Source: a virus. Taken from it: a stretch of 64,000 bases of DNA. The translations under genes and the position numbers were made by a program. The stretch is taken from IMG/VR virus record IMGVR_UViG_3300037067_026753. The stretch is one strand, 5' to 3'. The notes under the pieces were generated by a model that had not been told where the DNA came from, did not search any database, and was given only the letters and a program-made list of their open reading frames with translations. The first letter of the stretch is position 1, and the number at the start of each line of letters is the position of its first letter. Positions 46,676 to 48,226 of the stretch are shown here, in pieces.

Positions 46676-48226
46676 ATGACAACTATGGTAAAAAAAGAAC
46701 AAGACATCAGGGTTAAAATCCTCAACTCATTTATGACCTGTCCTCATCGAGACACGGGTGAATTGCAAAAAATTCATGCAGAAATGAGAGAGAAAGATCC
46801 TGTGTTCTATGCACATCTTGCTGCATGGTACAAAAAGAATGGTGATCTTCGTGATCATAATGAAGTTTTCACAGCCATGTTGATCACAGATCCTTTCTTG
46901 GACAATCGCGAAACAGGTATTGCTCTTTTTCAAAATCAAGCTCCCTTTATGAAAATCAAAATTCTCAGTTTCATTAAAGGGAAGAAAATCACTCTGAGGG
47001 AAAAGACGGGTGAACAAGTCAAACGCGGAAAGAAAATGATTGATGAGATCAAAAATTCTAAGAAACAAGTTGGTCTTATCAAAAATATCCCAAACATACT
47101 TCGAACTGAAATCGAAAGATATGTTCGTTGGCTTGAAAAAGACAATGATAGATTTGATTCTGTTGCTCTGACAAATTTCAATGATTTGAAATCTTTTTAT
47201 GCAGGTAAAGGTGTTCAGATCAAACCTTGTCCAAGAGCACAACAAATCCTGTTTGAAGAAAAATTTCCTGAAGATAGCAAACTTACTGTTTTCAAACAAA
47301 TCAGAGAAGCTGATACGCCTGAGAAAGCAGCCAATCTGATGGTGCAACATAAAATTCCTTACACTATTGCAGTAGGTTTGAGAGATAAAATTACGCCATC
47401 TATTTTGATTGCTTTGATCAATAACATGACTGCTCAGGAAATTATTACAAACATTGCTTCTTTGCAAGAAAAAGGTGCAATGGATAATCCTGGAACAAAA
47501 AAATTGATCACAGAAAAACTTGAAGCAGCAAAAACAGCAAAGAATGTAACTGCTCTCAAATCCAAAAGAGCTAAGCAGACAGGAAGAGTCAAAGACGAAA
47601 CTGTTCTCAAGCAGTTGGATGAAATTGCTGATAAGCAAATCAAAAAATCTGGGTCAATCAAAGTTTCTACTGGGTTGCTCATTGACAGATCAGGTTCTAT
47701 GGATGTTGCAATTCAAGTTGGAAAACAGATTGCTGCAACAATTTGTGGTTCAATGGAAGCTGATTTGTTCGGTGTCGCATTTGATACTATGGCACAAGCT
47801 GTTAAAGCAAGTGAAAATACATTAACTGCTTGGGAAAAAGCATTTGCGCCAATCCATGCAAGCGGTAGAACTTCAGTTGGTTGTGCTCTTGATTTCATGA
47901 TCAGGTATAAATTATATGCTGAACAGCTCATTATTGTGACTGATGAGGATGAAAACCAGAATCCACGATTTGCTGATGTATTTCCAAAGTATGTACAGGA
48001 AATGAAAGTAACTCCTGCAATTATTATCGTAAGAGTAGGTGACAAAAAAACTGGACTCAGTACTTCGCTTAAAAACGCAGGAATTTCTTTTGATTCATAT
48101 GAACCATCAGGAAATGACTACTATGGACTTTCAGGTCTGATACCTTTGCTTTCTCGTAAATCAAAGTTAGACCTTGTTTATGAAATTATGGACTTTCCAC
48201 TTCCGATTCGAAAGTCTTATGTCTAA
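46676..48226 (+). CDS. rsr: Ro60/Rsr ortholog: alpha-helical TROVE module plus C-terminal vWA domain with MIDAS (LLIDRSGSMD ... TDEDE)
   Basis: DxSxS...T...D MIDAS signature, length 516 aa, start MTTMVKK directly after previous stop. Confidence 0.7.
   Translation: MTTMVKKEQDIRVKILNSFMTCPHRDTGELQKIHAEMREKDPVFYAHLAAWYKKNGDLRDHNEVFTAMLITDPFLDNRETGIALFQNQAPFMKIKILSFIKGKKITLREKTGEQVKRGKKMIDEIKNSKKQVGLIKNIPNILRTEIERYVRWLEKDNDRFDSVALTNFNDLKSFYAGKGVQIKPCPRAQQILFEEKFPEDSKLTVFKQIREADTPEKAANLMVQHKIPYTIAVGLRDKITPSILIALINNMTAQEIITNIASLQEKGAMDNPGTKKLITEKLEAAKTAKNVTALKSKRAKQTGRVKDETVLKQLDEIADKQIKKSGSIKVSTGLLIDRSGSMDVAIQVGKQIAATICGSMEADLFGVAFDTMAQAVKASENTLTAWEKAFAPIHASGRTSVGCALDFMIRYKLYAEQLIIVTDEDENQNPRFADVFPKYVQEMKVTPAIIIVRVGDKKTGLSTSLKNAGISFDSYEPSGNDYYGLSGLIPLLSRKSKLDLVYEIMDFPLPIRKSYV

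Follow-up and report, generated by a model that had tools for sequence, protein, structure and literature searches.

In this study, we analysed a 64,000-nucleotide stretch of viral DNA (IMG/VR virus record IMGVR_UViG_3300037067_026753; the whole stretch is called the window below) and found that the open reading frame (ORF) at 46676-48226 of its plus strand encodes a genuine, highly divergent homologue of the conserved autoantigen Ro60, in which sequence profiles and a predicted structure indicate a HEAT-repeat ring followed by a vWA domain that bears a MIDAS, or metal ion-dependent adhesion site. Ro60 proteins of phages are already known, and this one adds a very divergent new member to them. 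Its gene lies downstream of an array of four RNA cassettes that are built on one conserved two-helix scaffold, and within an operon whose gene order is conserved among related phages. The explanation that we favour, with a probability of about 0.7, is that a divergent phage Ro60 goes together with a linked scaffold-RNA array and operon, and that the scaffolds are its Y-RNA partners.

Direct family scans failed to reveal Ro60, and only profiles and structure comparison did so. At E<=1 the Pfam scan of the protein gave neither TROVE (PF05731) nor VWA, the NCBIfam scan gave no match, the PADLOC scan gave nothing useful, and a single-sequence phmmer search against PDB gave nothing meaningful; the only hint was a match of its vWA part to PHROG 850, labelled 'RNA-binding protein', at E 4e-4. 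Homologues of the protein number in the hundreds and lie on contigs of up to 512 kb, and a profile of 40 close homologues found a sole, weak match in PDB (E 0.025), the 'TROVE domain-containing protein' of phage phiLo. An AlphaFold2 (AF2) model built on the same 40-homologue alignment reached a mean predicted local distance difference test (pLDDT) score of 82, and in a Foldseek comparison with PDB its top 13 matches were all Ro60 structures, essentially full-length (about 500-590 alignment columns), with E values from 3.8e-11 to 2.3e-8, template modelling (TM) scores of 0.52-0.61 and a sequence identity of about 13-14%. These 13 structures include human (9nfa, 9nep, 9nen and 9nf8) and Xenopus (1yvp, 1yvr and 2i91) Ro60, Deinococcus Rsr (2nvo) and the protein of Thermus phage phiLo (9kop and 9l5y), and the isolated vWA domains in the Foldseek list rank below all of them. 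An exhaustive profile search extended the Ro60-like family to 1418 clusters at 50% identity. A distant-family profile, made of the window protein and 44 of the most distant relatives among the matches listed, matched every solved Ro60, including human (1.7e-17), Xenopus (1.3e-12), Deinococcus Rsr (8e-8) and phiLo (E 6e-13), the last over profile positions 24-393, which cover the HEAT repeats and the vWA domain. In addition, Pfam PF25045 ('Ro60 vWA domain') was matched by 10 of the 45 family members with a best E of 4.8e-9, the window protein itself giving no match.

The ORF is uninterrupted, and its start at 46676 is well supported, because a GGAGG box lies 8 nt 5' of the ATG, the ATG follows the stop codon of a preceding 83-residue ORF by 1 nt, and homologue alignments begin at residues 1-8. 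A longer ORF from the ATG at 46592 would overlap the upstream 83-residue gene and is unsupported. The N-terminal two thirds of the protein are helical in the AF2 model, and the five MIDAS residues of the vWA domain, contained in the strings LIDRSGSMD, GRTSVG (T399) and IIVTDEDE (D423), are invariant in 40/40 close homologues and in 45/45 distant members (25-42% identity). The original prediction, made from the sequence letters without database searches, had read here a 516-residue ORF with a vWA MIDAS in the C-terminal third, a long helical N-terminal part and a Ro60/Rsr identity, all of which agree with our results; its word 'ortholog' is too strong, a divergent homologue or subfamily being what the evidence supports. 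The predicted HEAT ring contains a clade-specific long beta-hairpin rich in Lys and Arg, with DSSP strands at residues 103-117 and 120-132 of the model (pLDDT 65-75). In many family members the profile match splits into two stretches at positions ~100-140, which may be read as absence of the hairpin in these relatives.

The four cassettes of the window (Table 1) share a common grammar. Each is closed by a perfect or near-perfect terminal stem of 12-15 bp whose sequence is different in each unit; then come an internal loop with UUUAAC(N) facing AACUC, a helix with GUGCU/AGCAU, the sequence UACAU, the payload and an A-rich 3' joiner. The closed hairpin in the payload of cassette 2 has 17 bp, and in cassette 4 the payload order, as judged from sequence and fold, is T-arm, loop-closed acceptor stem, D-arm and anticodon arm, which is of YrlA type. 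The head of cassette 3 has A33 in place of the universal U33. The scaffold motif occurs 16 times in the window, and the 4 occurrences that a scaffold detector passed all fall within the array, compared with a mean of 0.58 passed in dinucleotide shuffles; none of the 11 ordinary tRNAs of the same window carries the scaffold. The array ends 382 nt 5' of the Ro60 start, so that the placement of the gene 'immediately downstream' of the array, as first described, holds roughly, with a strong intrinsic terminator and the 83-residue ORF in between. Equivalent hairpins and T runs follow the arrays of two related loci (L001 and L003). A promoter match 5' of the array is weak, promoter-like sites being fewer in this region than the shuffle expectation. 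Two other origins for the flanks were considered and rejected. As for known RNAs or self-cleaving ribozymes flanking the tRNAs, no non-tRNA Rfam family reaches threshold in the array. Archaeal bulge-helix-bulge splice sites, suggested by RtcB and by a Nanoarchaeia label on a deposited copy of the protein, do not fit an internal loop of 5-7 nt versus 5 nt, which is not a pair of 3-nt bulges around a 4-bp helix, and this idea was dropped also in view of the phage portal, terminase and protease genes.

The same scaffold recurs widely. Among 20 related loci found by tblastn, with Ro60 identities of 28-74%, cassettes lie 5' of Ro60 in 19 (L001-L012 and L014-L020), in 18 of these on the Ro60 strand and in L008 on the opposite strand. 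The window and these 19 loci together hold 45 unique cassettes, in arrays of up to 7 units. In the consensus, a variable terminal stem of 9-15 bp pairs the RNA's 5' and 3' ends, followed by an internal loop (5' YYWAMN, 3' RACUY), a helix with an invariant G-C and an invariant C-G pair, and UACAU or UACAA. Units were selected by pairing (at least 8/10 in stem 1 and at least 6/9 in helix 2) and their heads were spliced out by the author; MAFFT misregistered stem 1 when the spliced scaffolds were left unedited, and trimming the 5' loop to 5 nt gave a gap-free alignment. In 41 spliced scaffolds, 89% of cells form standard pairs, compared with 57% in column shuffles (0/500 reached the observed value) and 33-39% after a shift of the partners by 1-3 columns. 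With 3' strands swapped between units, stem 1 is 52% paired instead of 94%, and helix 2 is 62% paired instead of 83%; these percentages are inflated by the threshold selection and the manual splicing, which has to be set against them, and the numbers of pair types per position are not. Stem 1 shows 3-6 pair types at each of its ten pairs, and helix 2 contains two invariant pairs, G-C and C-G. Double-sided changes number 276, with 90 expected, and the covariation score is 0.861 versus 0.244. An unbiased pattern scan of IMG/VR returned 13 stretches, with true cassettes in 4 contigs, 3 of which adjoin Ro60.

The heads carried by this scaffold are of seven kinds: whole tRNAs, acceptor-less tRNAs, permuted mimics, T-arm plus hairpin, GC-rich hairpins, loops of 11-21 nt and one 281-nt insert. 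Many are called tRNA by ARAGORN and Rfam, the acceptor-less ones matching Rfam model positions 7-64 of 71, and permuted tRNA-like heads are found in cassette 4 of the window and, as equivalents, in L001, L003, L015 and L020. Several side observations concern these heads. The anticodon AUU, with A34, recurs in unrelated loci (cassette 1 of the window, L010 2384-2513 and L015 3602-3748), and other cassette heads favour UAU, GAU, AAU and UAA. The 281-nt payload, in the scaffold at L018 2410-2744, looks structured and reaches the gathering threshold of no Rfam family. At the other extreme are naturally minimal units, given as 77-85 nt long, such as those at L017 3864-3942 and L018 4320-4392. A HEARO RNA (RF02033, 90 bits) lies at L004 3112-3297, within the cassette-array region 5' of Ro60.

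Around Ro60, the gene order ubiquitin-like (Ubl-like) ORF, Ro60, OB-fold, JAB and E1 is conserved, and start and stop codons overlap or abut. The 281-residue OB-fold gene is the most conserved Ro60 neighbour (18/20 loci). Its product, for which, as for the Ro60-like protein, a structure was predicted, belongs to no Pfam family; it likely binds RNA and is probably a second subunit with this function. Its AGICLxGxD motif contains the one invariant Cys of the protein (C249). The 83-residue ORF is found directly 5' of Ro60 in 13/20 loci within the examined flanks. Its product ends in a conserved NGNITVRPxxx(F/W)G with a near-invariant Gly, followed by 0-4 variable residues, a pattern like that of Ubl or sulfur-carrier proteins trimmed by JAB peptidases, which makes it a candidate of this kind; its profile matched no PDB sequence, including no Ubl, and against Pfam it gave only a sub-threshold DUF4170. 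The JAB gene product matches Pfam Prok-JAB at E 5.8e-4 with 20.2 bits, which is under the 25-bit cut-off, and PADLOC JAB models at E 1.5e-4, and its motif HTHx8SKED has one spacer residue more than HxHx7Sx2D. The E1 is matched by Pfam ThiF above the cut-off (E 3e-24) and by the ThiF, MoeB, UbaA and TcdA models of NCBIfam. No E2-like protein is found among the operon genes, and no PP-loop or Fe-S thiolase was seen. These conserved neighbours (Ubl-like ORF, OB-fold, JAB and ThiF/E1) had been left out of the original prediction.

Table 1. Features in and around the Ro60-like gene (positions in the window, or residues of the Ro60-like protein where so marked)
Feature	Position	Strand	Remarks
Ro60-like protein gene	46676..48226	+	516 aa plus stop codon, no internal stops (translation)
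HEAT-repeat (TROVE-type) ring, N-terminal (predicted)	~aa 1-320 of Ro60-like protein		
Lys/Arg-rich long beta-hairpin within HEAT ring (predicted)	46982..47071	+	aa 103-132, clade-specific
vWA domain, C-terminal (predicted)	~aa 325-516 of Ro60-like protein		
MIDAS metal site of vWA	47684..47944	+	D337-x-S339-x-S341, T399, D423; invariant in both alignments
Weak sigma-70-like promoter match	45619..45648	+	9/12 consensus positions, 5' of array
RNA cassette 1	45656..45796	+	two-helix scaffold and complete tRNA-like payload 45689-45764, anticodon AUU, encoded CCA
RNA cassette 2	45819..45975	+	two-helix scaffold; payload of hairpin, T-arm and long closed acceptor-like hairpin, without D-arm
RNA cassette 3	45984..46129	+	scaffold and tRNA-like payload 46019-46094, anticodon UUG, encoded CCA
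RNA cassette 4	46144..46294	+	scaffold and circularly permuted tRNA-Ser(GCU)-like payload
Intrinsic terminator closing array	46315..46346	+	12-bp stem, then T run
83-aa protein, candidate ubiquitin-like or sulfur-carrier	46423..46674	+	translationally coupled to Ro60
Tandem OB-fold protein, 281 aa	48219..49064	+	overlaps Ro60 stop codon by 8 nt
Candidate JAB/JAMM-type metallopeptidase	49030..49443	+	motif HTHx8SxxD; 14/20 loci
ThiF/MoeB-type E1-like adenylyltransferase	49805..50437	+	210 aa, GxGxxG motif; 10/20 loci
Pnk-like kinase	50437-50949		
PARP	50906-52318	+	eukaryote-type, with WGR, regulatory and catalytic domains
NADAR domain protein	59143-59592	+	
RtcB with intein	59786-62179	+	797 aa
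Rnl2-type RNA ligase	39367-40374		
Conventional 11-tRNA cluster	35364-37781	-	scaffold flanks absent; internal control for the array
TPR-repeat protein	41797-45474	-	1225 aa, divergently transcribed from the RNA array

Three features characterise Y RNAs (PMC4201824): the Ro60 site lies in a stem that the 5' end forms with the 3' end, the effector module is a separate one, and the gene is found on the Ro60 strand at no more than about 4 kb from Ro60. Because the cassettes have this layout and this position, and because cassette 4 has the YrlA order, we take the scaffold as a putative Y-RNA-type handle bound by the Ro60-like protein. The array would then yield a panel of Ro60 ribonucleoproteins (RNPs) that display heads shaped like tRNAs. 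On the analogy of Rsr in Deinococcus and Salmonella and of Ro60 in Thermus phage phiLo, these RNPs might tether or sequester host exoribonucleases and tRNA-binding enzymes during infection, or alternatively gate a ring that threads damaged or misfolded RNA ends; the Rsr-like role with Y RNAs and exoribonucleases that had been put forward from the sequence is an analogy of the same sort. An Rnl2-type ligase, a Pnk-like kinase and RtcB, all RNA-repair enzymes, are encoded in the same window. The OB-fold protein may contribute to RNA binding. More speculatively, the Ubl, E1 and JAB proteins might act as an E2-independent system like SAMP/UbaA or TtuB/TtuC, which would modify an RNP component or supply sulfur for thiolating the tRNA-like RNAs.

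Several observations weigh against this reading. TROVE PF05731 is matched at E<=0.01 by 0/45 family members. A Pfam TROVE search and a comparison of an AlphaFold model with Ro60 rings were the two checks proposed in the original prediction, and the former gave no match, the outcome there named as refuting, whereas the latter was clearly positive, with full-length matches. In our view the missing match reflects divergence and not a different fold, and the curated TROVE model overlooks the entire branch of Ro60 to which this protein belongs. The link between Ro60 and the RNAs is genomic only, and the OB-fold gene, which is linked almost as tightly, could encode the scaffold binder instead. The scaffold does not contain the GNCGAAN0-1G/CGAA motif of the bacterial and phiLo Y RNAs, and no Rfam Y-RNA model matches on the plus strand at E<=10, the sole match being RF00019 on the wrong strand (E 2.6). 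Several heads are good complete tRNAs with encoded CCA, and such units could be simple pre-tRNAs. One true cassette, that of L030, has no Ro60 within ~1.5 kb on either side. Finally, the 83-residue protein was assigned as a candidate Ubl by size, terminal Gly and gene context only.

An extended form of the favoured explanation, in which the locus is a programmable Ro60 RNP system with one handle, joined in tandem arrays to interchangeable heads (authentic tRNAs, acceptor-less tRNAs and permuted mimics), and with assembly or control by the OB-fold protein and an E2-less Ubl/E1/JAMM module, seems to us possible but doubtful. Tethered tRNA decoys or adaptors would in that case capture or redirect host tRNA-targeting nucleases, modification enzymes and exoribonucleases. 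If true, Ro60 would for the first time be tied to a ubiquitin-like system outside eukaryotes, and the RNAs would form a new Y RNA class with its own recognition motif.

Among the other explanations, it is rather unlikely, and compatible with the one we favour, that Ro60 mainly serves a Ubl modification or sulfur-transfer pathway formed by the Ubl-like protein, the ThiF/E1 and the JAB without an E2. Ro60 and the OB-fold protein would then hold tRNA-like substrates, for example for thiolation, or Ro60 itself would be the conjugation target and the MIDAS a docking point. SAMP and TtuB systems tie the activation of a Ubl to the thiolation of tRNAs, and the translationally coupled gene order, the conserved C-terminal Gly with short variable tails that is the usual substrate of JAB trimming, the E1 matches to UbaA, MoeB/ThiF and the tRNA-modifying TcdA, the absence of an E2-like protein, and the OB folds of the 281-residue neighbour all agree with such a pathway. 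However, the profile of the candidate Ubl matches nothing in PDB and the JAB stays under the Pfam cut-off, the E1 and the Ubl-like gene occur in only 10/20 and 13/20 loci, respectively, within the examined flanks, and neither a PP-loop nor an Fe-S thiolase was seen.

It is a little harder to accept, and in our opinion improbable, that the cassettes are unrelated to Ro60 and form a specialised tRNA operon, whose flanks are processing stalks that are cut off to release the tRNAs, akin to the RNase III stems found on both sides of rRNAs and of phage T7 transcripts. Ro60 would then serve in RNA quality control or PNPase sequestration by itself or together with other RNAs. Many heads are indeed high-scoring complete tRNAs, some with encoded CCA, the anticodons UAU, GAU, UAA and AUU would suit an AT-rich genome, the flanks form an interrupted duplex of about 20-25 bp as in known processing stalks, and on the 192-kb phage contig of L030 a single permuted-type cassette (1520-1660) stands among ordinary clustered tRNAs, no Ro60 being found in the DNA examined. 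On the other hand, simple end-trimming cannot make tRNAs of many heads, namely of loop-closed acceptors, of heads that lack an acceptor or a D-arm, of GC hairpins or of 11-21 nt loops. The G-C and C-G pairs, UACA and ACU are kept between phages even where their Ro60 proteins share only 28-44% identity, which points to a sequence-specific protein partner rather than to RNase III. Moreover, the 11 ordinary tRNAs of the same phage do without such flanks, and the arrays adjoin Ro60 in 19/20 loci. Lastly, that the protein is no kin of Ro60 but a vWA-MIDAS protein of a generic sort, whose helical N-terminal domain is unrelated, as the silent Pfam TROVE, NCBIfam and single-sequence phmmer searches would allow, is highly improbable and already contradicted by the Foldseek and profile results, since full-length fold matches are exclusively to Ro60 before any isolated vWA appears, the match to phiLo Ro60 crosses the helical region, and some relatives match the Ro60-specific vWA family.

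The window belongs to a huge phage. Portal, large terminase (TerL) and head protease genes are found in it, in agreement with the earlier description of the protein as phage-encoded, together with 13 tRNA-type genes, and Ro60-like relatives lie on IMG/VR viral contigs of 200-570 kb. An identical protein has been deposited in NCBI as a 'hypothetical protein' on a 424-kb contig of a 'Candidatus Nanoarchaeia archaeon' metagenome-assembled genome; because of the phage portal, terminase and protease genes we doubt the archaeal label, which is probably a binning error, the contig being a mis-binned huge phage. Pnk, PARP, NADAR and RtcB had been described as one plus-strand island headed by Ro60. The genes are present but not contiguous, NADAR and RtcB lying 11-12 kb from Ro60, past minus-strand genes. 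Among the 20 related loci, PARP and the Pnk-like kinase recur only in the closest relatives (PARP in L001 and L002), and RtcB was not found within the examined flanks of any of them. The RtcB ORF owes its length to an intein (Pfam Intein_splicing, residues 99-431), which splits the RtcB match in two. As a further side observation, PARP and NADAR might form an ADP-ribosylation writer/eraser pair in this phage.

The importance of these findings lies first in a large unannotated branch of Ro60 in huge phages, whose members appear in public records as 'hypothetical' or 'VWA domain-containing' proteins. Two natural experiments are offered by it. In one, a scaffold has been recombined with dozens of tRNA-shaped heads, so that a division between scaffold for the protein and head for the effector should be directly testable; in the other, the conserved partnership with an OB-fold protein and Ubl/E1/JAMM suggests partners for the ring and perhaps for the MIDAS. 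The findings matter for annotation as well: tRNA finders take the heads for ordinary tRNAs of the phage, with odd anticodons (AUU, for instance), and many cassette heads are probably parts of larger non-coding RNAs.

In the literature searched, we found no linkage of a Ubl system to Ro60, no conserved operon of Ro60 with an OB-fold protein and Ubl/E1/JAB genes (and no report of one for phiLo or mycobacteriophages), no record of the present scaffold motif, which differs from GNCGAA/CGAA, and no tandem arrays of one scaffold with many heads that include complete tRNAs. The archaeal SAMP/UbaA/HvJAMM1 and Thermus TtuB/TtuC systems are E2-independent Ubl systems linked to tRNA thiolation, and they resemble the genes around Ro60 in combining a small Gly-ending protein, a ThiF-type E1 and a JAB/JAMM peptidase (a candidate one in the window) without an E2. 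Unlike in these systems, no thiolase was identified here, and the 83-residue protein is a Ubl candidate by sequence and context only. The best matches in fold and profile (9nfa, 9nen and 1yvp) are to eukaryotic Ro60 (TROVE2/SS-A), which shares ring, vWA domain and MIDAS with the window protein, whereas its Y RNAs have a conserved GGUCCGA bulged helix that is missing here; La and other eukaryotic partners are likewise missing, and the window gene stands in a viral operon.

Bacterial Rsr with YrlA/Yrn1, known from Deinococcus and Salmonella and forming RYPER with PNPase (PMC4201824; bioRxiv 10.1101/312249), has the same protein architecture and a modular RNA in which a Ro-binding stem is joined to an effector head, and RtcB, kinase and ligase genes for RNA repair are found in the wider neighbourhood here. 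Bacterial YrlA mimics a permuted tRNA whose parts run AC-5', T, closed acceptor, D and AC-3' (PMC4201824; bioRxiv 10.1101/312249), and cassette 4 shares the succession of T-arm, loop-closed acceptor stem and D-arm, which makes it a circularly permuted tRNA mimic too. In YrlA, however, the Ro-binding stem replaces the anticodon stem, while in cassette 4 the anticodon arm is complete and the scaffold exits at the variable-arm position; in others the scaffold either prolongs the acceptor stem or takes its place, and GNCGAAN0-1G is absent.

Precedents for Ro60 in phages include mycobacteriophages, with YrlA (PMC4201824), and a few jumbo phages, as 'ROT/TROVE' (PMC7824862); Ro60 is known also from Asgard viruses. 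The Ro60 of phage phiLo has been reported to bind two upstream Y-like RNAs as well as host PNPase (PMC12135203). Compared with the phiLo protein, the window protein is about 13-14% identical in fold alignments, leaves Pfam TROVE silent and is predicted to have an extra basic hairpin at residues 103-132, and compared with those of phiLo and the mycobacteriophages its RNAs are without CGAA and come in arrays of up to 7 units, with one scaffold and differing heads that include complete tRNAs. In common with phiLo phiRo60 and its Yrl1 and Yrl2 (PDB 9KOP and 9L5Y; PMC12135203) and with mycobacteriophage Ro60, the window holds a phage protein with a HEAT ring and a vWA-MIDAS, and structured RNAs that lie just 5' on the same strand, with stems of paired RNA ends; the phiLo protein is also the best profile match through the helical region and stands among the top fold matches.

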